This document shows, one piece after another, positions 9,571 through 37,377 of a DNA stretch of 40,363 nt. The translations under genes were made by a program, and so were the position numbers. Within the stretch, counting starts at the first letter, position 1; every line of letters begins with the position of its first letter. The notes below the pieces were generated by a model, which searched no databases, was not told the origin of the DNA, and saw nothing but the letters and a program-made list of their open reading frames with translations. The DNA is from a virus: the IMG/VR virus record IMGVR_UViG_3300022214_000002. One strand, given 5' to 3'.

Positions 9571-10001
9571 GATGGTTCCTTCCAGATAATATCAGCCAGT
9601 CGTGCCGAGCGTCCCTTGACTTGCTGAGCCCACAACGAATTCAACATTTCAGCCTTAGCTTCTTTGTATCTCTTGTCTTCGAGATGAGCCAAAAACTTTC
9701 TGAATCGGCTCAGCTTATTGATCCCTAAGTTAAACGCCATGTTGAAGACGACGTTCCGCCGGTCTTCTTCCAGTCTCTCAAGCCACGGCCACTTCTTCAA
9801 AGACTCATGGACATGCTTCTCGATGTCCTTGTCGAGAAGAGCCAAGGCTTCTTCCTCGGTAATCGGTACGGCCCTTTCGTGGGCCGATACCAAATGTCCA
9901 TAACCTATGGTGAGAAATCCTAACGAGTCCGTATAGGGAATGTGCATCCCGTCTTTCTTCACCGACCCTTCATCCCGTACAAGCATATCTCGTAACGTCA
10001 T
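9567..10001 (-). CDS. Endolysin, T4-type lysozyme (GH24)
   Basis: MLVRDEGSVKK...YTDSLGFLTIGYGH aligns with the T4 lysozyme catalytic residues E11, D20 and T26. Confidence 0.9.
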   Translation of the reverse strand: MTLRDMLVRDEGSVKKDGMHIPYTDSLGFLTIGYGHLVSAHERAVPITEEEALALLDKDIEKHVHESLKKWPWLERLEEDRRNVVFNMAFNLGINKLSRFRKFLAHLEDKRYKEAKAEMLNSLWAQQVKGRSARLADIIWKEPS

Positions 10002-11446: not shown

Positions 11447-11453
11447 GTGTTCC

Positions 11454-17011: not shown

Positions 17012-17012
17012 G

Positions 17013-17474
17013 TTATTTCCTCTTCGTCATGGAACGATAGATGCGTTCCAGGTTTGGAAAGTGATTTGCGTTGAGTCCGGATGGATCGTTGTCCACCCCA
17101 AGAGGGGCATAGCCCCGACTGCTCGACTCTTTCAACCCTAGGGCTTTCCCACCCCAGGAAAAGTACTGCAAGAACTCAGGAAGATATTTTCCACTTGAAT
17201 CGACTGGGGGTCTGCCCATCTCTTGCTGGAACCTATCTTCCGTGAGCTTGACTTGGTTCGCGGCTCCCATGAACTGAGCCTTCATTCCAAACCATCGTTT
17301 ACTGCCCACACCAAACCCCAGTTCATAGCCCGTCTTGCCTTGTTCTGTTAAGGCCAGAGCAGACAACAAATCAGGATCACTCACCTGTGCCTGTTTGGCG
17401 TAGAATTGGAGGGTGTTGGCTGCAGAGGGACGAAGGAATTTCTGTCCTTCGCTTTCAAAAAATAAGTCACTCAT
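17013..17474 (-). CDS. Internal virion protein (153 aa), function unknown
   Basis: ATGA coupling within the internal-protein block. N-terminal FFESEGQKF weakly recalls the catalytic ES motif of lytic transglycosylases; not supported further. Confidence 0.55.
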   Translation of the reverse strand: MSDLFFESEGQKFLRPSAANTLQFYAKQAQVSDPDLLSALALTEQGKTGYELGFGVGSKRWFGMKAQFMGAANQVKLTEDRFQQEMGRPPVDSSGKYLPEFLQYFSWGGKALGLKESSSRGYAPLGVDNDPSGLNANHFPNLERIYRSMTKRK

Positions 17475-19213: not shown

Positions 19214-19221
19214 AGTACTCC

Positions 19222-19755
19222 TTACATGGCAAATGCTTTAGAAACAGAAGTGAGTGAATCTTGAATGGCTTTACTTTGAGCCATCTTGTTCTGTCTGCGA
19301 AGTTCTTCTTGCTTGTACTTATTGAGATTCACCTGGTTCTGTGCTTGTATCTGCACACGAAGCTTGTCGACCTTGGACCGTGCTATAATTGCGGCTGCTC
19401 CGTTGACGATACTCGCGCTATCGGCAGATACTCCACGCGCTCCGGCTCCAGCAATAAAATCACCAGACATAATACCAGCACGTATATCGATATCCCGTTT
19501 AACTTGCTTTTCGGCAATCAATACCATCTGTGTGTTGTTTTCGAGGATGTTAATTTCAACCTGTTGCTGTCGTTGAAACTCTGCCATCCTACCAAAGCTG
19601 GCCGCAATATCGCTGAACATGCCCATGGCCTTGGTAGCCATACCGGCTCCCAAACCGCCCATACCACCAGCCATACCAGCAGAGGCACTTGCTCCGCCTG
19701 AGGCCCCGCCCATACCTGCAGACAATCCCGCTGCAGACAGTCCTTCTCCTGCCAT
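19222..19755 (-). CDS. Internal virion protein (177 aa, Gly/Ala/Met-rich N-terminus; gp14-like position)
   Basis: TAAATG junction with the upstream gene. Low-complexity GMGG repeats followed by a coiled coil. Confidence 0.6.
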   Translation of the reverse strand: MAGEGLSAAGLSAGMGGASGGASASAGMAGGMGGLGAGMATKAMGMFSDIAASFGRMAEFQRQQQVEINILENNTQMVLIAEKQVKRDIDIRAGIMSGDFIAGAGARGVSADSASIVNGAAAIIARSKVDKLRVQIQAQNQVNLNKYKQEELRRQNKMAQSKAIQDSLTSVSKAFAM

Positions 19756-21909
19756 TTAATCACCTGTCTCCACATGCTGCACCGCCGCAAGGATCGAAGA
19801 TCGAAACGGCAGTGGTTGTGTGATAATCACGGTTTCATTCCACCCGATATCTGGCGAGAACGTCAGATCGGTTTGTTCTTCTGACGGAGCACTCCCCATC
19901 AAGTCTTCTGTCGAGCGTGTGTAGTTGGTGGAGTTACCCACCGTCAACCCACGGCTTTCGTTTACTCGAAGAGTTACAGTAGTTGTTCTGATTCTACGTC
20001 CTACCGTAGTGCCATCCGCAAATTCACGGTGAGGTAAGAACAGCTCGATCGTCGGTGTCTCTCGTTCTAACCCGATATGGATCGTCGTCACAGTAGGATC
20101 AAGGGGCTCTAACAGAGCGGCCCCTATCACCGTCTGGCTTGGGTACGTCGCATCGTCACCCACAATCATGACTTCCTCACCCTCAAGGTGATGGAGACCC
20201 GACGTAACATTCGACACTGCACTGTTGAAGGTTGTTTTTATGGCACAGTCGAGCTGAACTTCAGGGTCGAAGTACTCGACAAACTTTCTTGTCGTTCCGT
20301 TAATTGTTCTCTGAGCAATCACCCACACGTCGTCGTCACCAGTCGTCTTAGTGGCGCACACGCTCTTGAATAGACCATTCGTCGTGCGTCGTGCCCAGGC
20401 GTTGATGTTCTGTTCTGACAAGAGTGCGATTGCAATCAGTACACCGTCGTTACGCACAACCCAGACTGTCTCGTTTGGTTCTGACTGGTAGGCGAGCTGT
20501 GCCATCCCACCACCTTCTTTAGCCAACCTGTTCGCCAATAGAGAAATGTCAGGAGCTATGTACTTGTCGGCTTCAACGCTGAACGACACCCGCCTGAGTT
20601 TCTTTCCACCACGTTGCATAAAGACGATCCCTGACGAAGTCTCAACCGCATCGCGTGGCTCGCTCCCGTGGTTAGCTTGTGGCCGTGCAAAGACTGACGT
20701 AGGAGTAATCCCGCCGTTATCTGAGCCGGTAATCTTAAACAGCTTTCCCGTTGTTCCAACTACCAAGAGATCGTCTGCTGCAAACCATCGAATAAGGTTC
20801 GCTGTCTTTGTCGAGATGTCGTACTGAAATCCATAACTACTGTCTTCTGGGGTCGCCATATCGAAGTTCGTAAACTGTCCGCTTCGACTACCTGAGAACT
20901 TCTGATCAAGGCCGACGACAAGTCGGTTCTCATGAAAGGTTCCGGCTTCCGGATATCCCTGAGCATCGCTCCACTGTCCTTTTGACCAGTCTGTCGTAGC
21001 CACGTTCACACACGTCTTCGTAATGACTCCGTTGGCGTGTGTACTGTTGATGACTCCTGTGGTGTTGATCCGCACAACCCCGTTCGCTATCCTGTAATGA
21101 ACCCCGTTATCATCGGCTGTAAAGACAGCGCCACTTGCGACTACCTGCACGTTCGAGTTGACGGTAGTTCCACCTGGGGTGAGCGTTGTCGCCGACTCGT
21201 TTGTGTCACCAAACGGTACGATCTGCCATAGTTCTCTGGCTAACTGAAACGTCGTCGCAGTTAGGCGAGTGAGTTTGTACGTAGGGTAGTTACGATGAAA
21301 CAAAAACATCGTGTCGGCATTCTGTGCTACTCGAACATTACGAACATCTGCTTCAAGCCACGGAGCAGTCAGCTCATAAATGCGCTTGGCTGTCCCACCA
21401 GAGATGTAAGCATTCGTGAACGTACTCCCTGCTAGCGTGAACTCGTTGGCTGTTGACGCAGTCACAACCCAGTCGCCATTCGCTTCATGTGTCCCAAGGA
21501 CTCCACTGATCACAACATACTCTCCGTCACTAAACCCGTGAGATACGGCAGATATGCGGACGAGTCCTCCTCCGTCGTCTTGCACGTCTGTAATCGTAAC
21601 AGAGTTTGCTTCGATACGGGCATGCTGTGTAAAGAATCGAAGATAGGCATTCCCCATTTCGATCGCGTAGGTTTGATCAGCACTGAACTCAAACGGGAAG
21701 AGGACCTGATCCCCATCCTCATGTCTGACGGGTGCTGCCATTAAGGTTCCTGGTGCGGTGTAGACACCACCATGTGGTTGAACAAGCCAGTTCACCATGC
21801 TCCTAACAGCCATGTTGTATTGAGGAAGATCAAAGCGTCCAGCTAGATCCTCACTCCACTCTCCACCTGTAAAACTTGTTTTTGCATGGTACCAGCTTGG
21901 AACTGCCAT
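19756..21909 (-). CDS. Tail tubular protein B / nozzle (gp12-like)
   Basis: 717 aa. N-terminal FTGGEWSEDLAGRFDLPQYNMAVRSMVNW...APGT is typical of podoviral nozzle proteins. Follows the gp11-like gene. Confidence 0.7.
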   Translation of the reverse strand: MAVPSWYHAKTSFTGGEWSEDLAGRFDLPQYNMAVRSMVNWLVQPHGGVYTAPGTLMAAPVRHEDGDQVLFPFEFSADQTYAIEMGNAYLRFFTQHARIEANSVTITDVQDDGGGLVRISAVSHGFSDGEYVVISGVLGTHEANGDWVVTASTANEFTLAGSTFTNAYISGGTAKRIYELTAPWLEADVRNVRVAQNADTMFLFHRNYPTYKLTRLTATTFQLARELWQIVPFGDTNESATTLTPGGTTVNSNVQVVASGAVFTADDNGVHYRIANGVVRINTTGVINSTHANGVITKTCVNVATTDWSKGQWSDAQGYPEAGTFHENRLVVGLDQKFSGSRSGQFTNFDMATPEDSSYGFQYDISTKTANLIRWFAADDLLVVGTTGKLFKITGSDNGGITPTSVFARPQANHGSEPRDAVETSSGIVFMQRGGKKLRRVSFSVEADKYIAPDISLLANRLAKEGGGMAQLAYQSEPNETVWVVRNDGVLIAIALLSEQNINAWARRTTNGLFKSVCATKTTGDDDVWVIAQRTINGTTRKFVEYFDPEVQLDCAIKTTFNSAVSNVTSGLHHLEGEEVMIVGDDATYPSQTVIGAALLEPLDPTVTTIHIGLERETPTIELFLPHREFADGTTVGRRIRTTTVTLRVNESRGLTVGNSTNYTRSTEDLMGSAPSEEQTDLTFSPDIGWNETVIITQPLPFRSSILAAVQHVETGD

Positions 21910-22511
21910 TATCGAACCTCGTCTAGTGTGGACGGAGTATAATCCTCTGTCGTCCCTTCTTGCCCATCAACGCTTCGTGCAGCCATGAGGACTTCTTTGA
22001 ACTCATTTCGTGCTTCCGTCTGTGCATCTGTCTTGCCGGTAATCTGGCGAGCAATGTACATCTTCAGCATCTTAGAGAAAGCCATAACGAAATTTATAGA
22101 GAAGACTTGACTATTTGAGACTCTGTAAATATACTTGATGTCAATGGGCGGGGCTAAGTCAGTGACGATGACTCTGTCGTCATTCTCTGCTGCTACTTCA
22201 GCTTCCCACGCATCATTGACTTCATATCCACCCTTGCCAATAGCAATGACTCGTAGGCAATTCGTCGGATAGGTGTAGGCATACTTATAACCCCAGGCAG
22301 GAGCCGTAGCACGGGCTGCTTGATTGGCGACACGTTTGATCGCAAAGTTCCACTTGTGTGCGACGAGTGTTTGCTCCAAGGCAAGGTCGTAGTATGTCAA
22401 AATAATTGAGGCTGACGAACTTCCATCTGATGGAAAGAGACTGCTCACACGGGACTGTCCTAGCTCGGACAACGCCATGTTGGCAATGTTAACGGGTGTG
22501 ATTGCGGCCAT
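21909..22511 (-). CDS. Tail tubular protein A / adaptor (gp11-like)
   Basis: 200 aa. VNIANMALSELGQSRVSSL...LVAHKWNFA pattern and position between the capsid genes and the nozzle. Confidence 0.65.
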   Translation of the reverse strand: MAAITPVNIANMALSELGQSRVSSLFPSDGSSSASIILTYYDLALEQTLVAHKWNFAIKRVANQAARATAPAWGYKYAYTYPTNCLRVIAIGKGGYEVNDAWEAEVAAENDDRVIVTDLAPPIDIKYIYRVSNSQVFSINFVMAFSKMLKMYIARQITGKTDAQTEARNEFKEVLMAARSVDGQEGTTEDYTPSTLDEVR

Positions 22512-22526
22512 CGTAATTCTCCATGT

Positions 22527-22550
22527 GGGGGCCAGGTTATTCTGGCCCCC
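22527..22550 (-). terminator. GC-rich hairpin downstream of the capsid-proximal genes (attenuator/terminator candidate)
   Basis: GGGGGCCAG (22527-22535) pairs with CTGGCCCCC (22542-22550), with a 6-nt loop. Lies between the stop at 22563 and the GGAG RBS of the next gene. Confidence 0.5.
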
Positions 22551-22562
22551 CGTTGATCTACA

Positions 22563-23126
22563 CTATGCGAGGTAGTACCCAATCTGGAACGTAAGCCTGT
22601 CGCCAATGTCACCATCAAAGGTCCCGCCCCCGTTTGCGGCCTTGATGAACAAGGTCACTGCAGAACGCGAGTTCAGCTTCACCGTCCCAAGGGGGGAGGC
22701 AGTCGCACCAGCAGTGATCGAGGATTCGCCTGTCCCGAAGTAATGACGGGTCAGAGTCGAAGAGTTCCCAAGGTCTGCAAATGTGCAGATCCCGTCAGAG
22801 TCTTCGGCAACGTCCGTCCCATCAGGATTCTTGAACGCTCTCCATCCCAATTCGAGGTTAGCAGCGTCGCCAAGATCGGCACTACATTTGAAGTAGGTCC
22901 GCTTCAGGTCGATCGTAGCACCGGCAGGAAGGACACAGAGGTTGATTTCGTCGGTGTTGGCGACGGTAGAACCCGTTCCATCTGCAGCCACGAGAGTATG
23001 ATCAATAAACGCAACCCGCTCTTTTGCTCCCAACTCCTGAGGATCGAGACGATCCCGTGTCGAGTTGACAGCGACTTGGCGGTTATACAGCGTCGTTCCC
23101 GACGCACTTGAACCAGTACCAGCCAT
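22563..23126 (-). CDS. Beta-rich virion protein (187 aa); candidate capsid decoration/cement protein
   Basis: AAGGAG upstream. Immediately follows the major capsid gene and precedes the hairpin. No motif-level assignment. Confidence 0.55.
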   Translation of the reverse strand: MAGTGSSASGTTLYNRQVAVNSTRDRLDPQELGAKERVAFIDHTLVAADGTGSTVANTDEINLCVLPAGATIDLKRTYFKCSADLGDAANLELGWRAFKNPDGTDVAEDSDGICTFADLGNSSTLTRHYFGTGESSITAGATASPLGTVKLNSRSAVTLFIKAANGGGTFDGDIGDRLTFQIGYYLA

Positions 23127-23152
23127 TTTAGTTTCTCCTTATTTCAGAATGA

Positions 23153-24019
23153 TTACTCAGTGACCTGGTTTTCAACTACGAGAGCGTCTTCCACTCGAAC
23201 CGCGCCGTGCATGGTCTTCACGAGTACCTGCAAGGTGTTGTTCTTGTCAGCACGTTTGTCAACGCTCGCCTTCACGCGGACCCATTCGGCAAACCCTACC
23301 GCACTCTTGTGGAAGAGGTACGTACCGCGAACGTTTGCGCCGCTCACGATAGGCAACAAGGTAGACTTAATCCACGCCATGCCCAAGTAGTTTTCAAGCT
23401 GACCAGTCATCAACGCCATAAAGGGGTTGAAGTCACGGCTGGTAAACGTGCTGATGGACAGCAAGTCTTCCAAGCTAGCAGGGCTGTGCACATACACAAC
23501 CTGTGATGGATCAACTTCCACGTCCACATCATGCAACTTCTTCAACGAAGCAATCAGCTTCGCCAAGGTATTGCCTGAGGCAGTCGTTTCTTTCTGCGCC
23601 GCAGGAAGAGCCAACGAAGAAGAACCAGATTCATCATACGCAGCCGATCCTTGAAGGGCATTGATGATTGTCTGATCGATCCGTCGGTTCACGGCAGCAG
23701 CCGCAGCCACAGCCAATTCACTGGTGATGTCTTGAAGGACTTCGAGTTGATCCTCTTCGTCCACCGGATGCGCCCACGAGTAGTTAGCTTTGAACGCAGC
23801 CCGACGGCTCTTGTCAATGTCCACCCACTCTGTGTCGCCATGTCGGACGGTATTGGCAACCATGTTGCTCGGACCGATCCGATCAAAGAACTTTACTTTA
23901 CCCGTAAGGTTCGTCGCCTTGCGGACCCACATCTCTAACTTCGCCATCTTTTGCTGAGTCAGGTGATGGACGTTGTCACTGTAGGCTTGAACTCTCCATT
24001 GCTCAATTGTATCAATCAC
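23153..24019 (-). CDS. Major capsid protein
   Basis: QWRVQAYSDNVHHLTQQK...KFFDRIGP...RRAAF...NRRIDQTIINAL pattern and position after the scaffold gene. Start set at GTG 24019 (AGGTG 5 nt upstream). The track ORF extends to 24073. Confidence 0.8.
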   Translation of the reverse strand: MIDTIEQWRVQAYSDNVHHLTQQKMAKLEMWVRKATNLTGKVKFFDRIGPSNMVANTVRHGDTEWVDIDKSRRAAFKANYSWAHPVDEEDQLEVLQDITSELAVAAAAAVNRRIDQTIINALQGSAAYDESGSSSLALPAAQKETTASGNTLAKLIASLKKLHDVDVEVDPSQVVYVHSPASLEDLLSISTFTSRDFNPFMALMTGQLENYLGMAWIKSTLLPIVSGANVRGTYLFHKSAVGFAEWVRVKASVDKRADKNNTLQVLVKTMHGAVRVEDALVVENQVTE

Positions 24020-24152
24020 AATAACACCTATAACTAAAAACACGTTACAAACATATCGCCAGTTGTCCCACACTGTGGGGCCGACTTGCTCGTAAGTGAG
24101 CCTGACTCTCCTTGTCTTTCCAAGGCGTCATAAGGGGGTCGTAACCTTGTCC

Positions 24153-25007
24153 TTATTCTTTTGGCGCATAAACAATTTTACGTAGCTCGTTGACCATCGA
24201 ACACGCTGCAGCATGTTGAGGATGGGCACTATCATGGTACGCATGTTGTTTATTCGCCAGGATCTCGTCAACTTGGGTCTTGGCTTGTTCTCGCGTAGTA
24301 AACCTCGCGTTCGACTCACCTGTAACCCAACTGTCTTCATGAATAGCTTTGCCGATAGAGACAAAGGTATCGAAGAACGTCTTATCTGAATTCAACTGAT
24401 AATCGTGGATCGCCTTTACGAGGGCATCCCCACCAAACCGCTTTGCCACCCTGTTAGCTAGGATCGCCGCAGACTGGTACTGATCACCATAGGCATCTCG
24501 GATAGCTTTGTCCCGCTCTGCTGTAGTAGTCTGAACCGTCTGCTCGTAGTTCTTCACGTCTGCTGCCAGGATGTCCTGGTAGCCAGCAAAGATCGCCTGT
24601 GCTTGTTTCGGGTGCAGTCCTGCTGACCACACTAGATCACTCAGGGCTTTCACCTTGTCGTCAGGAAGGTACTGCTTGAGCTTATCATCCTTGACAGCTA
24701 GTCCGTACTTGTCTGACGTTTCAGGACGAAGCTTCCCGTAGAAGCTGTCCCAATCCTTTTGTTCTGACTTCTCACCAGGGATGCGGACGCTTCCGCCTAC
24801 CATCTTGTGAGCTTCGAGGGCTGACTTGTAGACTTCCGTTACTGGCTTTCCTTCAAAGCCTTTGAAGAATGGCTCCGTTGCCATGTCCTTCGGGAGAGTC
24901 GCCACGCTAAATGCGGGAATCTGTCCTTGCCCCTGTTGACTTTCGCTACCCTGGCTTCCGCCAGTCTGTCCACCTTCTTGACCCTGATTGCCTGCAACGT
25001 CACTCAT
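24153..25007 (-). CDS. Scaffolding protein (by position)
   Basis: Between the portal and capsid genes. Gln/Gly-rich N-terminus, helical remainder. ATG 25007 lies 8 nt after GGAGGA. Confidence 0.6.
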   Translation of the reverse strand: MSDVAGNQGQEGGQTGGSQGSESQQGQGQIPAFSVATLPKDMATEPFFKGFEGKPVTEVYKSALEAHKMVGGSVRIPGEKSEQKDWDSFYGKLRPETSDKYGLAVKDDKLKQYLPDDKVKALSDLVWSAGLHPKQAQAIFAGYQDILAADVKNYEQTVQTTTAERDKAIRDAYGDQYQSAAILANRVAKRFGGDALVKAIHDYQLNSDKTFFDTFVSIGKAIHEDSWVTGESNARFTTREQAKTQVDEILANKQHAYHDSAHPQHAAACSMVNELRKIVYAPKE

Positions 25008-25269
25008 ACAATTCATCCTCCATTGGTGACTCTTGATTGCCTGACGGCGGGAGTCCGTTCTCTAGTACATCGTGTATGTACAGAACGACATCCTGTGAGC
25101 CGAGTCTGTAGCCCATCTGTGTCTGTAGGTTTACGCTCTGGGATTGTACCAGGGCTTGGCTACGGTAGTTCACGTACAAATCCCGTAGCCATTCCAGTAC
25201 GACTTGACCCGACGGAGTACTAAAGGTTTCCCTTACGCAGTCTGTGATCAACTCGTTTGTGTACTTCAT
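25000..25269 (-). CDS. Hypothetical protein (89 aa)
   Basis: ATGA coupling to the portal stop. Confidence 0.6.
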   Translation of the reverse strand: MKYTNELITDCVRETFSTPSGQVVLEWLRDLYVNYRSQALVQSQSVNLQTQMGYRLGSQDVVLYIHDVLENGLPPSGNQESPMEDELYE

Positions 25270-26909
25270 TGATTCCCTGTCGCCTCACTAAATGATTTCT
25301 GTGCAGCGCCCATGTCTTTCGCGGCTTGTGCTCCCTGCTGAAGCTGAGCCATTTGCTGAGACTGTGCTTGTTGTTCAGCACGTTGTGCCCTGATCCCGTC
25401 ACGGGTCTCAGTATCTCTGATGTACCTGCGGCTAATGCCGGTCAGTCTAGAGGCGTCAAGTGCCATCTCGTCTAGATCGTAGTTATCCCACACGTCAGGG
25501 TTGACAGCCGCTAGGTTGCCTACCACTGCCATAGTGTCACCAACAGCACGAAGCTCGTCTGCTCGCTGTGAACGAGCCAGAGGGCCTTCAAAGTTAAAGC
25601 GAACATGACCTAACTCCGGACGCATGATCGGTGGACGTGGGAGTAAGGCTCCAGCACGTTCCATGATGTTTAAAGCACGGCCAAGCACGGGGGCTAAGAA
25701 CTCGTACTTCAGTCGTCCAGTGCTGGGTCCTAATAGTTGATGTAAGAACTCCATTCTCTGAGCCACTTCAGTAGCAGACGGTGGTGTCTTTGCTTGCGGA
25801 GCAAACTGTAAGATCTGCTCCGTAAAGAAAATCTGTCTGATCTGTAACTTCGACTCGTTCTCTGGGATCGAGGCGTGGTCAAATCGCGCACCCGATTCAA
25901 GCGGACGAAGTGCACCGTCAAACCTAATACGAGTTAATCCCCCAGGGATCAGTTTCGGCGTGTTGATCACACCGTCATCGATCGCCAACAAGGGAGGATT
26001 CACGGCTAAGGCCCACTGTCTCAGCTTGAGCTGTCTAGCTCTGTTCAACGTAGCGACTTCTGGAAGGGCAAGATGTCCTCTACCGAATCCCCAGACTTCG
26101 CCTGTAGCTGTGTCCCATCGTGGGAATGCAAACGGCCATTCATGAAAGAATGACTCGTGAGCTGGCTCGAACTGCGCTGTATTGGCGAACTCTCCACCCG
26201 CTAAGGGTGTCCGTCCTGCCACGTAATACGTACTTTCGTACCTGTTCTTGCCCATCCTCACGTCGTGCACGACGGAGAGGCGCTCATACGGACGCTCAAT
26301 CATCAGCTTCAGAGTACTGGCTTTGTAGCTGCCCTTGGGCCAACGCTTCAGGATCGCACCTGCTGGAAGTCTGAACTCTCGTGTCTGCTGTCGGATCTGA
26401 CCCATACCATCTTCTTGGATTGTATAGGTGCCGATCGGCTGGCCCTTAAAGAGGAGCCCCCGAAAATCATCCGTCATTCTAAACTGCTCTTCGACTTCAT
26501 TCAGGAATACCCCGCCGGTACCAAACGCGACGATGTCGCGGATCACACCGGGACCTTCTACCTTATAGTTGCTTTCGTTAATCGCGGCAAACAGCCTGTC
26601 CGATGTGTCTGACAGCCAGAACTGAACTTCCGGCAGCAAGTTAATGGCGGGCTCGCTAAACTCAGCCATGAACCAGCGCAAGACATCGGACGTTACTGTC
26701 CCGATGATTAGCGATGTCAATTTGTCGAGGGCATCGATACCTGTGGTGTCGTGAACACGCTCCGTCTTCTTGTATCCTTCAAATCCAGACTTTGTAATAC
26801 TCTGAAGGTTTGGGAGAAGGTACTCAGCAATGCGCTGCCACTCAGATGCGGCTTGTCGCCGCTCACTGATAAGGTATTGATACTCTTGCTGCAAGAACTT
26901 CAAGTCCAT
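25266..26909 (-). CDS. Portal (head-to-tail connector) protein
   Basis: 547 aa. The N-terminus YQYLISERRQAASEWQRIAEYLLPN...DTTGIDALDKL...LRWF matches the podoviral connector pattern. Position upstream of scaffold and capsid. Confidence 0.85.
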   Translation of the reverse strand: MDLKFLQQEYQYLISERRQAASEWQRIAEYLLPNLQSITKSGFEGYKKTERVHDTTGIDALDKLTSLIIGTVTSDVLRWFMAEFSEPAINLLPEVQFWLSDTSDRLFAAINESNYKVEGPGVIRDIVAFGTGGVFLNEVEEQFRMTDDFRGLLFKGQPIGTYTIQEDGMGQIRQQTREFRLPAGAILKRWPKGSYKASTLKLMIERPYERLSVVHDVRMGKNRYESTYYVAGRTPLAGGEFANTAQFEPAHESFFHEWPFAFPRWDTATGEVWGFGRGHLALPEVATLNRARQLKLRQWALAVNPPLLAIDDGVINTPKLIPGGLTRIRFDGALRPLESGARFDHASIPENESKLQIRQIFFTEQILQFAPQAKTPPSATEVAQRMEFLHQLLGPSTGRLKYEFLAPVLGRALNIMERAGALLPRPPIMRPELGHVRFNFEGPLARSQRADELRAVGDTMAVVGNLAAVNPDVWDNYDLDEMALDASRLTGISRRYIRDTETRDGIRAQRAEQQAQSQQMAQLQQGAQAAKDMGAAQKSFSEATGNQ

Positions 26910-26916
26910 TGTGTCC

Positions 26917-27201
26917 TCACTGACCCGTCAAAGTTGGTCCGCCTAATGTCTGTGCGACTTGTGCACCAAGCGGTGAAGTCTTAATATTCATGTTTTGACG
27001 AGCAATCATTTGCCGTCGTCGCTTTTCGTCTACTTTTGCTGCCTGGTCGACTTTTTCTTCGTCAACCTTTTCAGCCCCACCACCAGGAGGCGGAGGAGGA
27101 GCTGTTGGCTTCTTCATCGACTGCGCTATTTGCAATCCCGTGGAGGCTGCTGCTGCGGCCACTGATACGGCCAACGCAGCCGCGATAGCTACTGGGGGCA
27201 T
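26917..27201 (-). CDS. Small protein with Ala-rich hydrophobic N-terminus, PPPPP tract and basic C-terminal region
   Basis: AAAGGA upstream of the ATG. Function unknown. Confidence 0.55.
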   Translation of the reverse strand: MPPVAIAAALAVSVAAAAASTGLQIAQSMKKPTAPPPPPGGGAEKVDEEKVDQAAKVDEKRRRQMIARQNMNIKTSPLGAQVAQTLGGPTLTGQ

Positions 27202-27524
27202 GATCGTTCCTTTCGTTTCTTTCGTTTATACTGATACAAAACGCCTACTGGTTCAAAGGACTTCTTGCCCCATTCAATAACATGAGCAGTATGTCCAACA
27301 AAGTAAATGGCAATGTCCGATTTAAAATACGGGAGCAACGCAAGACAGGCTTTCGTTCCTGTTCCAACTATACCAAGAATCATTAAGTGATCTGGGAAGA
27401 CACTATAAAAACACATCCCATCGTCGGCTACCGACACGTAACAGAAGTCCACCTTACTACTAAACTCAGTGGACAAGTCGGAACGTAACTCAGCCGGAAA
27501 TGTTCCTGGCGGATAGATGATCAT
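27189..27524 (-). CDS. Hypothetical protein (111 aa)
   Basis: TGATG coupling to the TerL stop. Confidence 0.55.
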   Translation of the reverse strand: MIIYPPGTFPAELRSDLSTEFSSKVDFCYVSVADDGMCFYSVFPDHLMILGIVGTGTKACLALLPYFKSDIAIYFVGHTAHVIEWGKKSFEPVGVLYQYKRKKRKERSCPQ

Positions 27525-28921
27525 CAGTCCTCCATCACGTTGAATTCCATGTCGGCTACAGTAGGAGCGTCGTGCATTTCGTCAAAGTCAATCTGAGCCT
27601 GATCACCAGCAGTAGTACTGTTTAGGTAGCGCCTGATAGCGATTGCCCCGTAGGTGAATGCTGACCCTCCGTGCGAGGCCCAGTCGTGGAACTCGTTGTC
27701 GCTGTACTCTTTCTTGTCTTCGTCGTACTCTCTGCGATAGCCTAAGAGGGCTCCCCAGCCTGACCTTTCCGGCACACGATGCGTGACGGCTGGTTTGTGG
27801 AAAAAGCTGATAGGGAATATCCTACGGCCAGCATCCACACGGTCAGCCACACCGAGTTTTTTAAGTTGGATAAAATGAACGCCAAGTCTCCGTGCTGTTT
27901 CGATGCGCGTCTGACCTGTGCCGATTTCAGTGCTCTTAACGTCGAACGGAGCAAAGTGTTTACCATAGCGGTACGTCTTGTCTCTGAGCAGCTTGGCAAA
28001 CTCTGGAATACCACCAGACTCCAAGGGCTCGTAGTCGATCCAGAACGGACGACCATTCTTCAGTTGAAAGAACCAGGTAACAAACTTCAAGCCTGTCCCA
28101 AGGTCTGATACCGTGTGAACAGGAAGATCCGGATCATACGGGTAGTTCCCGTATCGATCTTCTTCTTCACAGGCAATGCACTGGTCCGCAAAATAACTTC
28201 CAATCTGTACGCCAGCAAAAGATGTGTAAAACTCCTGCTGGATCTTTTCCTCAGGCATACCCGAACGTCGTTCGGCTTCGATCATCGAATCAGGAATCAG
28301 CCTGACTCCGTTCCAGTCAAGGATGTCTTCCGCCGTTAGCTTGGAGACTGCCCAGTCTGGATTGTCTTTATTTCTGTCGTAGAGTTCATATCCGTGATTG
28401 TGGCCTCTGGGCGTATAAATGAACATAGCCCATCCACCATTCTTTGCAAGGATGGGTCGGATATAGTCCCAGCCTGCGGCTTTTTGTACTGAGTACTCTG
28501 AGAGAACGGCTCCAACACAGTTTGTACCAAGCGCTGATGTATCAAACGTGTCGATACCAACAAGTTGGATTATTGATCCGTTAACAAGGGAAACTTGTAA
28601 CTCGGATTCATTCGGATCTCCTGTGATGATCTCTTTTGGAATGTAGTCACGGAAACGCATTCCGTCGTCTGTCATTCCATCCCAAATGATGCGCTTCGCT
28701 TGCTTGTGCGTCGGTAGAAAGTAAAAGTAAGTCCCTACCCTCTCAAGAGCCCGTGCAACCATGAAGTTAATCGCGGTCAAGTCTTTGCCAGCCCGACGAG
28801 GCCAGACGAGGATAAACCGCTTAAACCCTTCGTGCCATTTCACAAATGGGAATTCTTGATAGGGATAGGGATTATACTTCCAGTCTGGACTAAGATCCAT
28901 CTCTTGAATAATTTCAGGCAT
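27524..28921 (-). CDS. Terminase large subunit
   Basis: GGAGGA upstream. PYQEFPF...ILVWPRRAGKDLT Walker A region, 465 aa, acidic nuclease-domain residues in the C-terminal half. Confidence 0.9.
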   Translation of the reverse strand: MPEIIQEMDLSPDWKYNPYPYQEFPFVKWHEGFKRFILVWPRRAGKDLTAINFMVARALERVGTYFYFLPTHKQAKRIIWDGMTDDGMRFRDYIPKEIITGDPNESELQVSLVNGSIIQLVGIDTFDTSALGTNCVGAVLSEYSVQKAAGWDYIRPILAKNGGWAMFIYTPRGHNHGYELYDRNKDNPDWAVSKLTAEDILDWNGVRLIPDSMIEAERRSGMPEEKIQQEFYTSFAGVQIGSYFADQCIACEEEDRYGNYPYDPDLPVHTVSDLGTGLKFVTWFFQLKNGRPFWIDYEPLESGGIPEFAKLLRDKTYRYGKHFAPFDVKSTEIGTGQTRIETARRLGVHFIQLKKLGVADRVDAGRRIFPISFFHKPAVTHRVPERSGWGALLGYRREYDEDKKEYSDNEFHDWASHGGSAFTYGAIAIRRYLNSTTAGDQAQIDFDEMHDAPTVADMEFNVMED

Positions 28922-28949
28922 CGCCTTGTTGATCCTCCAGACTGTTGAG

Positions 28950-29045
28950 TTAGTTTTTCTGAATGAGTCGCGCCTCTAATTCTGCAATGCGCTCTTCAAG
29001 TTCTTCTATTTTCTCTGCAAGTGCGTTTAACAGTTCTGTGTTCAT
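28950..29045 (-). CDS. Tiny coiled-coil protein (31 aa)
   Basis: Own translation MNTELLNALAEKIEELEERIAELEARLIQKN. ATGA overlap with the upstream stop. Confidence 0.35.
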   Translation of the reverse strand: MNTELLNALAEKIEELEERIAELEARLIQKN

Positions 29046-29236
29046 GACGCCCCCAATGCTCCAACCGAAGTTAAACTCTCATGTCGCTTCTTCTGTTCCT
29101 CAAGCTTCATCTTCTTGGCGTAGGCCTTCTCAAACCACTCCAACGTTTCGTGTGAGACTTTGCCTTCATGTCGAAGAGCCCTCGCCGTCTCGGTAACCTC
29201 TCGCCCCCGATATTTTCTCTCGTCATGCTCGTCCAT
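29042..29236 (-). CDS. Hypothetical protein (64 aa), charged
   Basis: ORF-track ORF, coupled to neighbours on both sides. Confidence 0.5.
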   Translation of the reverse strand: MDEHDERKYRGREVTETARALRHEGKVSHETLEWFEKAYAKKMKLEEQKKRHESLTSVGALGAS

Positions 29237-29342
29237 ATCGTCGCTCCGTTATTTCATCAAGATGTTCATTGCAGAGATAGCACGTCTTGTCTTGCTGAAA
29301 GCAGTACCAGATCATACACGAAAAGCAGAGTAGATACTTCAT
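29223..29342 (-). CDS. Tiny Cys-rich (zinc-binding-like) protein (39 aa)
   Basis: Own translation MKYLLCFSCMIWYCFQQDKTCYLCNEHLDEITERRYGRA. ATGA overlap with the upstream stop. Confidence 0.35.
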   Translation of the reverse strand: MKYLLCFSCMIWYCFQQDKTCYLCNEHLDEITERRYGRA

Positions 29343-29776
29343 ACAATCTCTCCCCTGTCTCGGAGTTTATCTTTGCCAGCACCACGAACTAACATGCGCC
29401 CACGCAGGACACGTAAATCATGCAAGCTGAGCAACCGAATCCGGCTGTACTGTCCTTTACGAACCATCGTCCTGCGATATACAGGCGGGTCCAGTTGCGG
29501 CTTGCAGACCTTCAGGAGCCAGCGAATGTACTCCTTGGTACATGGAAGTGCGGTGGCAGCCCAGTCAAGGTCTACCATCGGGCCGAACTTCTCCTCGCCG
29601 GTTACGATTGATAACACAAAGTTCACTGGCTTCCCGAAGTGTCTAGAACTCGGATGCCGTTGAGCACGTTCGACTTGATTTAGGAACGTCCGTATCTGTT
29701 CAACGAACTCGTCTACATGTTCTCGCGTGGCGATGACATGTCCCGTCATTGTTGACTTCTGCCGGAGTTCATTCAT
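29339..29776 (-). CDS. Hypothetical protein (145 aa); possible DNA-binding or small-terminase candidate, by position only
   Basis: GTGGAG upstream. Lies three mini-ORFs upstream of TerL. No recognisable motif. Confidence 0.55.
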   Translation of the reverse strand: MNELRQKSTMTGHVIATREHVDEFVEQIRTFLNQVERAQRHPSSRHFGKPVNFVLSIVTGEEKFGPMVDLDWAATALPCTKEYIRWLLKVCKPQLDPPVYRRTMVRKGQYSRIRLLSLHDLRVLRGRMLVRGAGKDKLRDRGEIV

Positions 29777-29777
29777 A

Positions 29778-31187
29778 TCAATACTCCACGGTCTGGTTTG
29801 TCTTGGCCGTACTGTCTAACTTGTAAATCGTAGACTCTCGATACTCTTGTCCGTTGTACCAGGCTTTCCCTGGACCACGAAAGGCATTGAGTGAGAAGGC
29901 ACTTGTGTTCACTGACGGCACTGCATAGATCCAGTACTGCGACTCGGCTTCAAAGATATTCCCGACGATCTGCCATCCGCCAAAGGCATCGTTACCAGGC
30001 TCGTTCGACTTATCGATGTAGAGACCAACTTCTCCCCCACGAGAAATGTTGTTACTAAACACGCTCGTCTCTGTACTGTCGTTTGCAAGTTTGTAGTTAC
30101 GGATGTTGTCGAACGACGTGTTCCCAGAAATGATACAGGCCCCGCCGTATCCAGTCCGCTCTTCTATCCCGTTATTGCCGGAGGCATTGTTTGCGGTGTA
30201 GTGCCTGTGTCCAAATACTGTGTTATTCAGGATGCGACACCCAACGGTTCTGTTCTGACTATTCCCCCACACTTCGATCCCGTCTGATTCGTTTTCATAC
30301 ACGACGTTCCCTTGGATGGTGATATAGGGAGACATCTCGCTCCCAATCCCGTAGGACTCACCCAGCATGGGAAAGGCCAGCCGTGAGTTGTAATAGGAGA
30401 TGTTCTCGCGAATGATGACGTTTGCAGCCATGTGGCTGTAGATCCCATCTCCGTTTGCAAAGGTGCGACAGCGGCTAATCACGACATGTTGAATCAGATA
30501 TGGGTCCGTGGCTGTCCCGTCTAGGGACACGCCCCCGCGTCTGTTTCCATGCGCGACACACTTATCGATCGTGATATGGTGCGTATTCGGTATGGACGAG
30601 TTCTGCACTCGAATCCCATGTCCGTAGTTATTACGTGAGATCGCGCCTACCGACGTAATGTAGCTGCTTCCCCCTGCAATGAAGAGCCCGTGTCCACGTG
30701 TGGCCCCTGGTGTTGGTGACGACTCGGTGTTTGACTGTGTCACGGTTGAGTACATCTGAATATGTGTTACACTCCTCGTGACAAGCTGTGCGCCATACAA
30801 CCCCGTATTGGATGTGGGGCCTGTAATCGACACGTTCCGGATCACGAGGTAGTGACTGTCTTGAATCAAGAACCCGTAGGGCGTTGTGCCGGTGAGTGTC
30901 ACCGTGGCAGGTGTCCCTCCTGGGCATGACCAGTCATAGGTAATCGGAAGAGAACTTGTTCCCGCACGATTATGCAGCTCAACAGGAGGCTGCAACGGTC
31001 CGCACAAAAAGACAGTATCTCCTGGTGCGGGTGTGCACGACGGGTCCGTCAAGCCTTGACATGCATTGGATGCACTCGACCCCGATCCGTTGCCTGAATA
31101 GACTTGGGCGACATACAGGTTTGCAGCCAGAGTGAGTGATGGAAGACTCAACCCACATAAGACTACCGTACTAATTCTTTGGAGCAC
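29778..31187 (-). CDS. Right-handed parallel beta-helix protein (polysaccharide lyase/depolymerase-like) with N-terminal signal-peptide-like segment
   Basis: Repeated beta-helix signatures (NVSITG, HGIRVQNS, HGNRRGGVSLDG, ANGDGIYS, NESDGIEVWG, NNGIEE). GTG 31187 gives MLQRISTVVLCGLSLPSLTLAANLYVAQ. Alternative starts at 31256 and 31334. Confidence 0.75.
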   Translation of the reverse strand: MLQRISTVVLCGLSLPSLTLAANLYVAQVYSGNGSGSSASNACQGLTDPSCTPAPGDTVFLCGPLQPPVELHNRAGTSSLPITYDWSCPGGTPATVTLTGTTPYGFLIQDSHYLVIRNVSITGPTSNTGLYGAQLVTRSVTHIQMYSTVTQSNTESSPTPGATRGHGLFIAGGSSYITSVGAISRNNYGHGIRVQNSSIPNTHHITIDKCVAHGNRRGGVSLDGTATDPYLIQHVVISRCRTFANGDGIYSHMAANVIIRENISYYNSRLAFPMLGESYGIGSEMSPYITIQGNVVYENESDGIEVWGNSQNRTVGCRILNNTVFGHRHYTANNASGNNGIEERTGYGGACIISGNTSFDNIRNYKLANDSTETSVFSNNISRGGEVGLYIDKSNEPGNDAFGGWQIVGNIFEAESQYWIYAVPSVNTSAFSLNAFRGPGKAWYNGQEYRESTIYKLDSTAKTNQTVEY

Positions 31188-31467
31188 TAACCGTAGCAAA
31201 TACACGAACACCCCCAGTTGTGCTAATCCACCAATCTGACTTCCGAGAGATTGCATCAAGCTTGACTGTGTACCATCCCACCGGAACAGTCGTGCTAATG
31301 ATCTGCACGGGTGACGCCCCTGAAGGGTTGTCACTAATTTCTACAATCTGCGTCGTTGAGGCGACGTTGAATATGAGTGTGCCTAAGATCGCTCCTGGGC
31401 CTGATTTCGTTAACTGCGAATTGGCACTGCCCAAAGCTGTGCCTGGTGCAACGGTAATTAAGTGCAT
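31171..31467 (-). CDS. Hypothetical beta-rich protein (98 aa); first gene after the large non-coding region
   Basis: AAGGGAG 4 nt upstream of the ATG. Confidence 0.65.
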   Translation of the reverse strand: MHLITVAPGTALGSANSQLTKSGPGAILGTLIFNVASTTQIVEISDNPSGASPVQIISTTVPVGWYTVKLDAISRKSDWWISTTGGVRVFATVSAPKN

Positions 31468-31706: not shown

Positions 31707-31880
31707 CACTAGTAATACACATAGTCTATGCCCCCTCACTAGTAAGACTTTACACCGTGGATTGGTCACTAGTAATACATTGCATCTAACTAGTAACTAG
31801 CTCCACGTTGTTACGCTAGTTTAGTAATACTCGTTATCTAGTATTACTAGTTATATATTATATTAATATATAATACTAGG
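31707..31880. repeat. Array of ACTAGT palindromes (5 perfect, 4 one-mismatch copies) ending in a 25-nt pure A/T tract
   Basis: CACTAGTAATACA at 31707 and 31767, and CACTAGTAAGAC at 31737 (30-bp phasing). ACTAGT also at 31789 and 31846. Palindrome CTAGTAtTACTAG at 31838-31850. A/T-only stretch 31851-31875. Confidence 0.8.
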
Positions 31881-32088
31881 GCCGGAATAGTAGCTGTTAG
31901 TCCTTGTGCCGATCGTTAAACGTGTCGATTCGATGCTGTATCTCACCAATCACGATAGCTAACAAGGCGACTGCCATGATCGTCCAGAATATGCTATCCA
32001 TTGTCTTAAACATCAGACATAATACCTTTCTAGTAGTTTGTCATACAATCGAGCAAATAATAAGACAGCAAGTAGTAGTAAATGCTCC

Positions 32089-32493: not shown

Positions 32494-32496
32494 ATC

Positions 32497-32691
32497 TTAG
32501 GCCTCACTCATGAAAACACATTGCAGTTTGTAGACTGTACCCTTTGGGTAGGTATACTCCATGTCTTGCTGTATTCTGTCTCGATCAAGAATACACTCGT
32601 TATGAGCATTGACGCCAGTATATGTATTCAGCTGGTGCGTATGAGACACGCCAGTAGGTGCCGATATCAGAACCAAGAATAAGTACCACAT
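32497..32691 (-). CDS. Small protein with signal-peptide-like N-terminus (64 aa)
   Basis: GAGG 7 nt upstream of the ATG. MWYLFLVLISAPTGVS... First gene of the leftward operon. Confidence 0.45.
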   Translation of the reverse strand: MWYLFLVLISAPTGVSHTHQLNTYTGVNAHNECILDRDRIQQDMEYTYPKGTVYKLQCVFMSEA

Positions 32692-32814
32692 AATAAGGCC
32701 TCATACGTAGATTTTAGGGTATCTCATAAGATATAAGACGGCAAACTAGCCTTTTGTCTCACATAGGTCTAACCTGTTGATTTTATTATATGAAAAAATA
32801 TGTGGCTATCGTAC

Positions 32815-32843
32815 TTGACAAGTCAAACTGTAGCTGGTAGAGT
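32815..32843 (+). promoter_or_regulatory. Sigma70-like early promoter candidate for the rightward early operon
   Basis: TTGACA (32815-32820), a 17-nt spacer, then TAGAGT (32838-32843). Lies ~40 nt upstream of the first + strand ORF. Confidence 0.45.
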
Positions 32844-32952
32844 AGCCATTGACATGAGAGTGTCGTAAGAAAGGTAGGTGAGTTATGGTGACCATGTTTG
32901 ACGGAAAGACTAAGTTGAACATGGTCCTACTCACTCTTACATGGAGAGAATT

Positions 32953-33681: not shown

Positions 33682-33682
33682 C

Positions 33683-33853: not shown

Positions 33854-33855
33854 CC

Positions 33856-34464: not shown

Positions 34465-34485
34465 CCTGTAACCAAGGAGTCAACC

Positions 34486-35165: not shown

Positions 35166-35197
35166 GAGTACGACTAACCTAAACCAGAGGAGAAAGT

Positions 35198-35401: not shown

Positions 35402-35402
35402 C

Positions 35403-35597: not shown

Positions 35598-35616
35598 TCT
35601 TAACCAAGGAGACATT

Positions 35617-36176: not shown

Positions 36177-36190
36177 CCTGGAGGTATACC

Positions 36191-36391: not shown

Positions 36392-36393
36392 CT

Positions 36394-36621
36394 ATGCCAA
36401 ATCAGTTACCAGAAACACAAGAAGAAATGGAATGGTTAAAGCGGAGATTCTTTAACCTAATGTGCTTCAGATTGGGTGGTGAAGTTACCGTGACACAGGC
36501 AGAACTGGAAGACGTTACACGGTTTGTAGAACGAACACAGATACTTTTGCTCCAACATCCTGATAAGCCAAACGAATTCTTGCTTAAGACGATACGAAGA
36601 AAGGGACCAGGAGAAACCTAG
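36394..36621 (+). CDS. Early protein (75 aa); last gene of the early operon
   Basis: GAGGAG upstream of the ATG. Confidence 0.6.
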   Translation: MPNQLPETQEEMEWLKRRFFNLMCFRLGGEVTVTQAELEDVTRFVERTQILLLQHPDKPNEFLLKTIRRKGPGET

Positions 36622-36712
36622 TATTATATTATATATATTATACTAGTATAACTAGTACTATATCACGTTGTATCTAGTTCGTAACGACAGTGAAGAACTA
36701 GAACTAGTAGAA
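36617..36712. promoter_or_regulatory. Second ACTAGT/A-T-rich element, immediately upstream of the sigma factor gene
   Basis: CCTAGTATTATAT (36617-36629). A/T-only stretch 36622-36642. ACTAGT at 36642, 36651 and 36703, plus three one-mismatch copies. Confidence 0.65.
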
Positions 36713-36726
36713 CGGGGGGGATTCAC

Positions 36727-37377
36727 ATGCAGCAAAGGGAATTCAAACAACTAGTGCGCCAGAGTATCACGAAGCTAAGGCAACAAGTAAGCAAGACTGG
36801 TATTGCCTATGATGATTGCCAGGATATTCTGGCTACTGTGTTTGATAGAGCGTACCGCAAGAAAGCCTATACTAGGCTATCGAAGGCTAAGGCCTTCTCA
36901 TACTTGGCGAGTCGCGTCTACTTTGCTGCACATGAATTCTTGCGACAAGAACAAAATAAGAAAACAAGAGAGTGTTTCTTACCAGACGATACCGAGAGTC
37001 CCTTGATCCGCTTTGTTGAAGAACATACCGTTCCGGTAACAGAGTGTCCGTTTTGTTTCCAAGAAACCCTAAACGCGCTAGGCACGTGTAGTGCCTGTCA
37101 TACTGCCTGTCCATCGTATGCTGTGCTCCATCGTGGAACATACTCGATTGAAACTGTAAGCCTAGCCTTGGACGAAGACGTAATGCAGAAGACAGACATC
37201 AATCAAGCCATAGAAAGCTTGAACCCGATGGAGCAGAAGGTCGTTAAAGCCTGCATCATGGGCAATGAAAGTCTCGAATCCTTTGCCCAAATTGAAGCGC
37301 TGAATAGGAAGACACTCTGGAGAATTTGGGTAAAAGCCCGTGAAAAGCTTACACAGAAATTAGCAGAATATGCCTGA
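36727..37377 (+). CDS. Sigma-70 family (ECF-like, regions 2 and 4) factor with a Cys-rich insertion in the linker
   Basis: Region 2-like: AYDDCQDILATVFDRAYRK...FSYLASRVYFAAHEFLRQ. Region 4-like: AIESLNPMEQKVVKACIMGNESLESFAQIEALNRKTLWRIWVKAREKL. The insertion is CPFC-x10-CSACHTAC. Confidence 0.6.
   Translation: MQQREFKQLVRQSITKLRQQVSKTGIAYDDCQDILATVFDRAYRKKAYTRLSKAKAFSYLASRVYFAAHEFLRQEQNKKTRECFLPDDTESPLIRFVEEHTVPVTECPFCFQETLNALGTCSACHTACPSYAVLHRGTYSIETVSLALDEDVMQKTDINQAIESLNPMEQKVVKACIMGNESLESFAQIEALNRKTLWRIWVKAREKLTQKLAEYA

Follow-up and report, generated by a model that had tools for sequence, protein, structure and literature searches.

A very divergent ECF-like sigma factor with a predicted zinc ribbon in its connector, and its candidate promoters, in a T7-like podovirus without a detectable RNA polymerase

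How does a phage with T7-like virion genes transcribe them if no RNA polymerase can be detected among its genes? This question is raised by the virus record IMGVR_UViG_3300022214_000002 of IMG/VR, a stretch of 40,363 nucleotides (nt) that was analyzed at its full length and is referred to here as the window. The first and last 127 base pairs (bp) of the window (1-127 and 40237-40363) are identical, and therefore, it is a complete genome of ~40,236 bp, circularly closed or terminally redundant. Our analysis argues that an open reading frame (ORF) of 216 amino acids (aa) at the edge of its early region encodes a very divergent sigma factor of the extracytoplasmic function (ECF) type, which probably redirects the host RNA polymerase to the replication and virion genes. 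Phage sigma factors as such are known already, and so are T7-like podoviruses with a sigma factor and no RNA polymerase. What is new is a conserved, predicted zinc ribbon inside the connector of a sigma factor, found here in a family of ~55 clusters.

Judged from sequence profiles and a structure model, the 216-aa protein is a very divergent member of the sigma-70 family with an ECF-type (group 4) build, consisting of sigma2, a connector, and sigma4. Four independent lines lead to this assignment, namely NCBIfam, the Pfam matches of family members, the family profile, and the AlphaFold fold. The NCBIfam model TIGR02937 (sigma70-ECF) aligns with residues 9 to 212 over profile positions 13 to 165 of 165 (E = 4.6e-8), and 46 of the 49 members of our family alignment match it as well (best E = 2e-15), many of them together with ECF subfamily models. 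Pfam finds Sigma70_r2 in five of these 49 members, Sigma70_r4 and Sigma70_r4_2 in six each, and Sigma70_ECF in one. Compared with the PDB, the family profile matched the Bartonella ECF sigma factor 5uxx (E = 5.5e-6), with sigma2 (profile positions 5 to 79) and sigma4 (161 to 217) aligned separately. Positions 5 to 79 also align with sigma2 of 1h3l and 2q1z, the sigma2 domains of SigR and RpoE being matched, and positions 151 to 218 match sigma4 of 5uxx, 6pfj, FliA, and SigA. The AlphaFold (AF2) model, with a mean predicted local distance difference test (pLDDT) score of 85.6, shows three helices at the N terminus and a C-terminal domain of four helices. Foldseek comparison of this model with the PDB returned ECF sigma factors in the first 11 places in a row and in 18 of the 20 top matches (full-length probability, 1.0), among them SigE, SigH, and SigL of Mycobacterium tuberculosis, sigmaE of Escherichia coli, and AlgU; for isolated sigma4 domains (3hug, 5fgm, and 2h27), the template modeling (TM) scores were 0.71 to 0.84, with root mean square deviations of 1.5 to 1.8 Å. 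The best viral fold matches were phage ECF-type sigma factors as well, with those of the phiEco32-like phage GAP52 and Salinivibrio phage CW02 among them. The predicted fold is thus not unrelated to sigma factors, in line with the initial annotation of this gene. Regions 3 and 1.1 were not found: no family member has a Sigma70_r3 match, and the protein begins directly at the sigma2 helices. Most members keep the signatures D-x-V-Q in region 2.2 and T-L-W-R-x-W-x-x-A-K in region 4.2.

The family was collected by an exhaustive phmmer search, which gave 55 cluster representatives, nearly all of 216 to 270 aa besides a few truncated fragments. This phage family of ~55 clusters is so far uncharacterized. 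Four close homologues (61 to 75% identity) lie on 34- to 40-kb contigs, and identity to the window protein falls to ~20% within the 49-member alignment. One homologue carries the automatic label "sigma24 family" in its JGI record, and the PHROG sigma family phrog_1740 matches the window protein weakly (E = 0.012). In INPHARED, blastn with the locus gave zero matches, and tblastn with the sigma protein against its 50,697 phage records gave nothing at E ≤ 1. A scan of IMG/VR with an alignment of the close family produced no match and one with a 10-sequence family alignment only 3 loci; scanning GTDB genomes with the family produced no match.

The connector is the most unusual part of the protein in comparison with canonical ECF sigma factors. 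In the AF2 model, sigma2 ends near residue 81 and sigma4 starts near residue 150, leaving a helix-free connector of 68 aa, in good agreement with the ~70 aa estimated before. Cysteines occur at positions 31, 83, 107, 110, 121, 124, 128, and 176 of the protein, and the cluster from C107 to C128, described in the initial annotation as a zinc-ribbon-like insertion in a 216-aa ORF, is located in the sequence exactly as given there (nt 37045-37110). Closer inspection of the family revealed that C107, P108, C110, C121, C124, and T126 are invariant in 49 of 49 members, and E-C-P-F-C ... C-x-x-C-H-T is the sole invariant block outside the C-terminal domain of the alignment. Position 128, on the other hand, is a cysteine in only 3 of the 49 members and otherwise usually L, V, or I. 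Hence, the conserved site is a C4 site (CPxC-x10-CxxC) and not a C5 site; four of the five cysteines first grouped together stand, but C128 lies outside. Conservation of the CxxC-x10-CxxC core, as read from the alignment, is far beyond chance. The view that such an insertion is atypical of ECF sigma factors also holds, as canonical members do not have this conserved C4 site in the connector.

In the AF2 model, the ribbon has short beta bridges at residues 106, 114, 120, and 127 (pLDDT, 81 to 88) and no helices. Weak profile matches relate this region to the ribbons of the ribosomal proteins L32 and S27e (E ~ 0.05), and TackOD1 and Zn_ribbon_9 match in a few family members. The segment preceding the ribbon varies in length across the family and is acidic in all members (median charge, −6; range, −1 to −10), and the distance from C124 to D157 is 30 to 33 residues in 48 of the 49 members. 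In SigL of M. tuberculosis, a 20-residue, net-negative linker runs into the active-center cleft and out again by way of the RNA-exit channel (PMC6372665). The segment on either side of the ribbon is long enough for a path similar to that of the SigL linker. Sequence and model make it most likely that the ribbon is a predicted zinc-stabilized mini-domain situated where the sigma factor passes the polymerase cleft or the RNA-exit channel. By analogy, it would occupy either the sigma3 position of larger sigma factors or the mouth of the RNA-exit channel, and it could touch the polymerase or spacer DNA at an additional point. Two sensor types were considered for the cysteine cluster and rejected: a ZAS-type sensor, because CPFC...CxxCHT lies in a nonhelical segment and HxxxCxxC is missing (motif definitions according to PMC8999054), and a CorE-type sensor, because there is no C-terminal extension and the protein ends 3 residues past the last sigma4 helix.

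Candidate promoters of the sigma factor are found at both ends of the early block, where a module of ~95 nt is present in two copies that point outward, into the sigma/replication operon (module B) and into the virion operon (module A). The module is built of an AT-rich tract, an ACTAGTA-NN-ACTAG pair, the motif CGTAAC-N3/4-GTGRAG, and then CTAG boxes; the motif was counted twice in the window, compared to 0.04 occurrences expected by chance. Module B is 81% identical in relatives with a sigma factor of 68 to 75% identity. One of the related loci, L001, has both module copies in the same arrangement (the second at 5083 on the minus strand), and L006, with a sigma factor of 36% identity, keeps the AT-rich/ACTAGTA part at both boundaries. 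CGTAAC-N3/4-GTGAAG is found without mismatch ahead of the sigma operon at six loci from two clades (the window, L001, L004, L009, L007, and L011), including two (L007 and L011) that have unrelated flanking DNA and a sigma factor of only 24 to 29% identity. ECF promoters typically have an AAC core in their −35 box. Furthermore, the arrangement in the window (GTAAC, 15 to 18 nt, CTAG) resembles the promoters mapped by experiment for gp47, the sigma factor of phage 7-11 (GTAAtg-N16-aCTA), one of which feeds back on the sigma gene (PMC8948821).

Sites resembling promoters of the host sigma70 are located elsewhere. A consensus scan found them in each direction in the divergent early promoter region between the modules (for example, TTGACA-17-TAGAGT with an upstream TG at 32815-32843 on the plus strand), and from there, the early genes reach 36621 on the right and 31897 on the left. 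On the minus strand upstream of the virion operon (31468-31900), no sigma70-like promoter was seen, and none of the sigma70 type was found inside module B on the right strand. Over 22.5 to 32 kb, such sites are depleted (3 found versus 8.2 expected).

Does the phage have an RNA polymerase of its own? By its gene content, it is a podovirus with a T7-type portal, capsid, tail tube, and fibers. The minus-strand virion and lysis operon begins with a beta-helix protein, the large terminase, a T7-type portal (phrog_332), a protein in scaffold position, and the major capsid protein and continues with a gp11-/gp12-like tail tube, an internal virion protein, two fibers, an endolysin, and a holin. The T7 virion order noted before is found for portal, scaffold-position protein, capsid, gp11/12-like proteins, internal protein, and fibers, but the terminase lies upstream of the portal, and the order is therefore T7-like only for the portal-to-fiber core. 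The plus strand, from 36727 over the window end to ~9024, encodes the sigma factor, a Toprim primase, a DNA polymerase, a nuclease, a DnaB-like helicase, and genes of nucleotide metabolism. Neither RNA_pol (PF00940) nor a PHROG RNA polymerase matched any of the ORFs of at least 200 aa, and some smaller ones, in the window, a search that a very divergent or split enzyme could escape, and no RNA polymerase domain was found in any related locus scanned. The earlier statement that no ORF has the size of an RNA polymerase had overlooked one of 836 aa that is split by the window ends. We rejected it as an RNA polymerase, since it is a family-A DNA polymerase (PF00476, E = 2e-35) fused to a family-4-like uracil-DNA glycosylase (UDG) domain and an exonuclease, a fusion that recurs in relatives with 835 to 1,061 aa; the conclusion that no RNA polymerase is detectable thus survives. 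An ORF of 1,199 aa was rejected as well, as it matches only the internal virion protein family.

Taken as a whole, we consider it likely that the protein is a functional alternative sigma factor that redirects the host RNA polymerase to replication and virion genes by way of the two modules. In our model, the sigma gene would be transcribed early by read-through from the host-sigma70-type early promoters, and its product would then replace the host sigma factor on the core RNA polymerase. The resulting holoenzyme would fire the two outward-facing modules that flank the early region: module B would drive the sigma gene itself, in a positive feedback, together with the genes for primase, DNA polymerase, helicase, and nucleotide metabolism, and module A would drive the virion and lysis operon. 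With the host polymerase redirected at both modules, the phage would need no RNA polymerase of its own. We regard this two-module reading as the most economical one. Core binding, the assignment of the promoters, the timing, the dependence of middle and late transcription on this factor, zinc binding, and the role of the ribbon, including the regulatory or DNA-contacting one proposed first, are parts of the model that we infer.

Several observations weigh against this model, some of which concern the protein and others the DNA. The TIGR02937 match is significant, yet its score of 32.9 bits stays below the curated cutoff of 42.9, and the window protein alone has no Pfam sigma match even at E ≤ 10 (only noise, such as Fer4_16 with E = 0.03). 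The profile check of regions 2 and 4 that had been proposed for this gene came out in favor of a sigma factor through TIGR02937 and the Pfam matches of family members, with Pfam silent on the window protein alone. According to the rule of the ECF Hub, Pfam sigma2 and sigma4 matches have to be present with at most 50 aa between them (PMC7826278); the window protein, without a Pfam sigma match and with its 68-aa connector, falls outside this rule, and the pipeline used for the reclassification of ECF sigma factors did not capture phage ECFs (PMC7826278). Since both domains are there but the protein lies outside the ECF Hub rule and below the NCBIfam threshold, "ECF-like" is the right label. Region 2.2 of the window protein reads DILATVF instead of D-x-V-Q-E/D, with the usual Q and E being lost, and therefore, binding of the core polymerase by this protein is not assured. 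Conceivably, the protein is a decoy or regulator that derives from a sigma factor and binds the host core (or DNA via its helix-turn-helix) and modulates host transcription without initiating it; the strong divergence of region 2 would fit, and the long connector with its folded insert might hinder threading through the polymerase. However, sigma2 and sigma4 are both kept over ~55 clusters, with the signature positions in most members, and the phage would otherwise have no visible means of late-gene transcription, which makes a decoy very improbable.

As regards the DNA, the CGTAAC motif is absent from seven related loci (L006, L008, L010, and L012-L015), and there are two candidate promoter copies in 40 kb, none of them ahead of internal late genes (gaps 24074-24152, 28922-29041, and 29237-29338). 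Assignment of the −10 box by eye is ambiguous between CTAGAA and CTAGTA, and if CTAGTA is the −10 box, the leader of the sigma mRNA would be merely ~6 to 12 nt long. In addition, the conserved element of 15 to 16 bp is longer than what one helix-turn-helix, such as that of sigma4, normally reads, and the palindromic ACTAGT and TACGTA arrays resemble operator or iteron sites; another protein could use the conserved element as its operator. The modules would then be operators of a different phage regulator, or origin-like elements, and the real sigma promoters would lie elsewhere, unrecognized. The 9-, 15-, and 30-bp spacing of the palindromes is typical of repressor or iteron sites, and the motif is missing in several relatives despite similar sigma4 recognition helices. 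Nevertheless, every copy of the motif points in the direction of the operon behind it, two distant clades have it in close linkage with the sigma gene, and the AAC-containing −35-like core of the motif is followed, 15 to 18 nt downstream, by a CTAG box as in the mapped 7-11 promoter; we therefore regard the operator or origin function as unlikely. Another possibility is a genuine sigma factor that drives only its own sigma/replication ("middle") operon, with the virion operon being transcribed by the host sigma70 holoenzyme through read-through or with the help of another activator. We consider this restricted role rather improbable, because module A is a full second copy of ~95 nt in the orientation of the virion operon, with the same situation in L001 and, for the upstream part, in L006, and because the minus strand upstream of the virion operon has no sigma70-like promoter. 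Yet it would account for the exact motif copies being found solely upstream of the sigma operon, with one mismatch in the virion-facing copies, and for the ~320-nt leader with other conserved elements between module A and the first late gene; read-through could come from the leftward early gene (32493-32089).

For the preferred model, a sigma factor acting at both modules, one extension may be considered. The ribbon in the connector might read GTGRAG or dock at the mouth of the RNA-exit channel in the manner of the TFIIB/TFB ribbon, and a tripartite promoter (CGTAAC, GTGRAG, and CTAG box) would be paired with sigma4, ribbon, and sigma2, respectively. We see little probability in this idea, but it is conceivable, because the 15- to 16-bp element is too long for a single helix-turn-helix and is invariant between clades with sigma factors only 24 to 29% identical. 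It is conceivable also because the segment before the ribbon is acidic, like RNA-mimicking sigma linkers, and the tether behind it has a fixed length, and because the polymerase's own beta' zinc-binding domain contacts spacer DNA (bioRxiv 10.1101/2020.01.02.893370).

Table 1. Coordinates of the sigma gene, its predicted domains, the candidate promoter modules, and other features of the window
Feature	Position (nt)	Strand	Remarks
ECF-like sigma gene	36727..37377	+	ATG to TGA, 216 aa, stop codon within coordinates
Sigma region-2-like domain, residues 1-81	36727..36969	+	Three long helices, pLDDT 95-98
Acidic connector segment, residues 82-104	36970..37038	+	Net charge −5
C4 zinc-ribbon-like insertion, residues 105-130	37039..37116	+	Motif ECPFC-x10-CxxCHT
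Ribbon Cys codons	37045-37047, 37054-37056, 37087-37089, 37096-37098	+	C107, C110, C121, C124
Ribbon-to-sigma4 tether, residues 131-149	37117..37173	+	Low confidence, pLDDT 51-54
Sigma region-4-like helix-turn-helix domain, residues 150-216	37174..37374	+	Fold and profile matches
Module B	36618..36715	+	Candidate sigma-dependent, autoregulated promoter; 11 nt before sigma start codon
Module B elements	ACTAGTA-NN-ACTAG 36642-36655; CGTAAC 36680-36685; GTGAAG 36690-36695; CTAGAA/CTAGTA 36698-36709	+	
Module A	31890..31785	-	Second copy, facing virion/lysis operon
Module A elements	CGTAAC 31815-31810; GTGGAG 31806-31801; ACTAG 31794-31790	-	
Divergent early promoter region	32494..32940	Both	Sigma70-like sites in each direction, consensus scan only
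Early gene, 134 aa	32089-32493	-	77% identity to L001 5353-5751 (132 aa)
Virion and lysis operon	9166..31467	-	PHROG and Pfam matches; presumed late sigma target
Large terminase	27524-28921	-	Upstream of portal; in T7 at end of structural module
Right-handed beta-helix protein (NosD/Beta_helix), 518 aa	29778-31334	-	Near virion operon start, far from fibers
836-aa ORF split by window ends	38145-40363 and 128-419	+	UDG / 3'-5' exonuclease / family-A DNA polymerase fusion

The surroundings of the sigma gene are conserved. Related loci keep the order of small early ORFs, sigma gene, primase, and DNA polymerase, and in the window, the sigma gene is preceded by a 75-aa ORF without a family match and followed by the Toprim primase. 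A G-rich, Shine-Dalgarno-like run lies directly 5' of the sigma ORF. An anti-sigma gene was not found beside the sigma gene in the window, and relatives show the same synteny. In L001 (9187-9447) and in two other relatives (L002 and L003), a small early gene just upstream of the sigma gene has a weak Pfam match to S-adenosylmethionine lyase (similar to the SAMase of T3). At the other end of the early block, the 134-aa early gene is followed by two tiny minus-strand ORFs, and together they form a leftward early unit (31897-32493). Plus-strand ORFs at 31904-32682 (116 and 143 aa, with TTG starts) were rejected as spurious, since comparison with L001 puts the gene on the minus strand.

The leader of the virion operon contains further conserved DNA. 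A noncoding block of ~130 to 150 nt (31480-31640) is 82% identical to 4738-4868 of L001 and includes runs of G and of C, GGGGGTGGGGG and GGGTCCCC; Rfam has no match to it, and it could form a structured leader RNA or be a further promoter. The palindrome TACGTA is found at 31585, 31633, 31648, and 31663, and between this array and module A (region 31706-31780), there are three copies of CACTAGTAA(T/G)AC exactly 30 bp apart (31708, 31738, and 31768). Arrays of TACGTA occur in noncoding regulatory regions across the phage group (L011, 841-1168 and 4640-4697; L012, 2371-2421; L013, 654-844; L015, 46-106; L008, 868-1146), often with an exact 15-bp period (5 copies in L015 and 12 in L011), and by their sequence they look like operator or iteron arrays.

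Among the virion genes, both fibers (9998-13415) have a T7 gp17-like N terminus. The beta-helix protein may, from its sequence, be a depolymerase-type tailspike. The nearest portals from cultured phages are only 28 to 32% identical and belong to the Pelagibacter phages Baldr and HTVC010P-type and to the Vibrio phages VP2 and VP5. Neither Rfam nor a tRNA scan gave a match in the window. The GC content is 42 to 45% in the early region (31000-37000) versus 50 to 57% in the virion module (10000-31000), and the GC and AT skews change sign at the points of strand switch.

Phage sigma factors are compact, orthogonal switches of the bacterial RNA polymerase, and they serve synthetic biology as well as studies on the evolution of initiation factors. 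The family described here is not covered by a Pfam model and was not found among the cultured phages in INPHARED. It indicates that the connector between sigma2 and sigma4, normally a short, acidic, threaded peptide, can carry a folded, zinc-ribbon-like module. Should the ribbon make contact with polymerase or DNA, bacterial viruses would have a counterpart of the zinc ribbon found at the same channel in the archaeal and eukaryotic initiation factors TFB and TFIIB. The model also suggests a simple transcription plan with two promoters for widespread, uncultured T7-like podoviruses without an RNA polymerase of their own.

How does the phage compare with known systems? An AAC-containing −35 element and autoregulation are hallmarks of ECF sigma factors. 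The candidate −35 element with its AAC and the likely autoregulation are features that the window protein shares with the bacterial ECF sigma factors (sigmaE of E. coli and SigH, SigL, and SigE of M. tuberculosis), as is the sigma2/sigma4 build without sigma3. In contrast to them, it is phage-borne and has no adjoining anti-sigma gene. The acidic connector segment has its parallel in the acidic sigmaR2/4 linker of SigL (PMC6372665), but the SigL linker has ~20 aa compared to the 68 aa with a folded C4 ribbon found here. Cysteine modules are known as C-terminal extensions in CorE/CorE2 (ECF238), OrbS, and ECF287/288; CorE, furthermore, has a bare CxC in the linker between sigma2 and sigma4, and Gp17 of Bacillus phage vB_BceM-HSE3 has a double zinc ribbon in place of sigma2 (PMC8999054, PMC7826278, PMC9023288). 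The Cys-rich domain of CorE and OrbS is thus C-terminal and metal sensing, whereas the ribbon in the window protein lies inside the connector, and unlike Gp17, the window protein keeps both sigma domains and has a single CPFC-x10-CxxC ribbon. In the literature that we searched, there is no description of a ribbon inserted between an intact sigma2 and an intact sigma4. Sigma linkers perform a job equivalent to that of the ribbon and reader of TFB/TFIIB (PMC6372665), factors that combine a zinc ribbon with a segment in the RNA-exit channel and active-center cleft; the likeness to the window protein is one of analogy, not of homology.

As a virus, the phage resembles the HTVC010P-type phages, VP2/VP5, and Salinivibrio phage CW02 in its T7-type portal and tail module and in a genome of 35 to 40 kb. 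These phages and Baldr are T7-like phages that are not known to encode an RNA polymerase of their own. The annotated sigma factor of CW02 is a fold match to the window protein. However, the relation to HTVC010P, VP2/VP5, and CW02 is distant, and none of them encodes a detectable homologue of the sigma family described here. With gp47 of phage 7-11 and gp36 of phiEco32, the window protein shares the nature of a phage factor of the sigma2-plus-sigma4 type; those factors form a holoenzyme with the host core and drive nonearly genes, and a promoter upstream of the sigma region is present in 7-11 as well, where it gives positive feedback (PMC8948821). In contrast, there is no detectable sequence similarity to these factors, the phage is a 40-kb T7-like podovirus and not a member of the phiEco32-like group, and two candidate promoters compare with eight in 7-11. 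A zinc ribbon in the connector is not reported for the 7-11 and phiEco32 sigma factors. In sum, gp47 of 7-11 and gp36 of phiEco32 are the closest counterparts in function, and the ECF sigma factors of bacteria are the closest in build.

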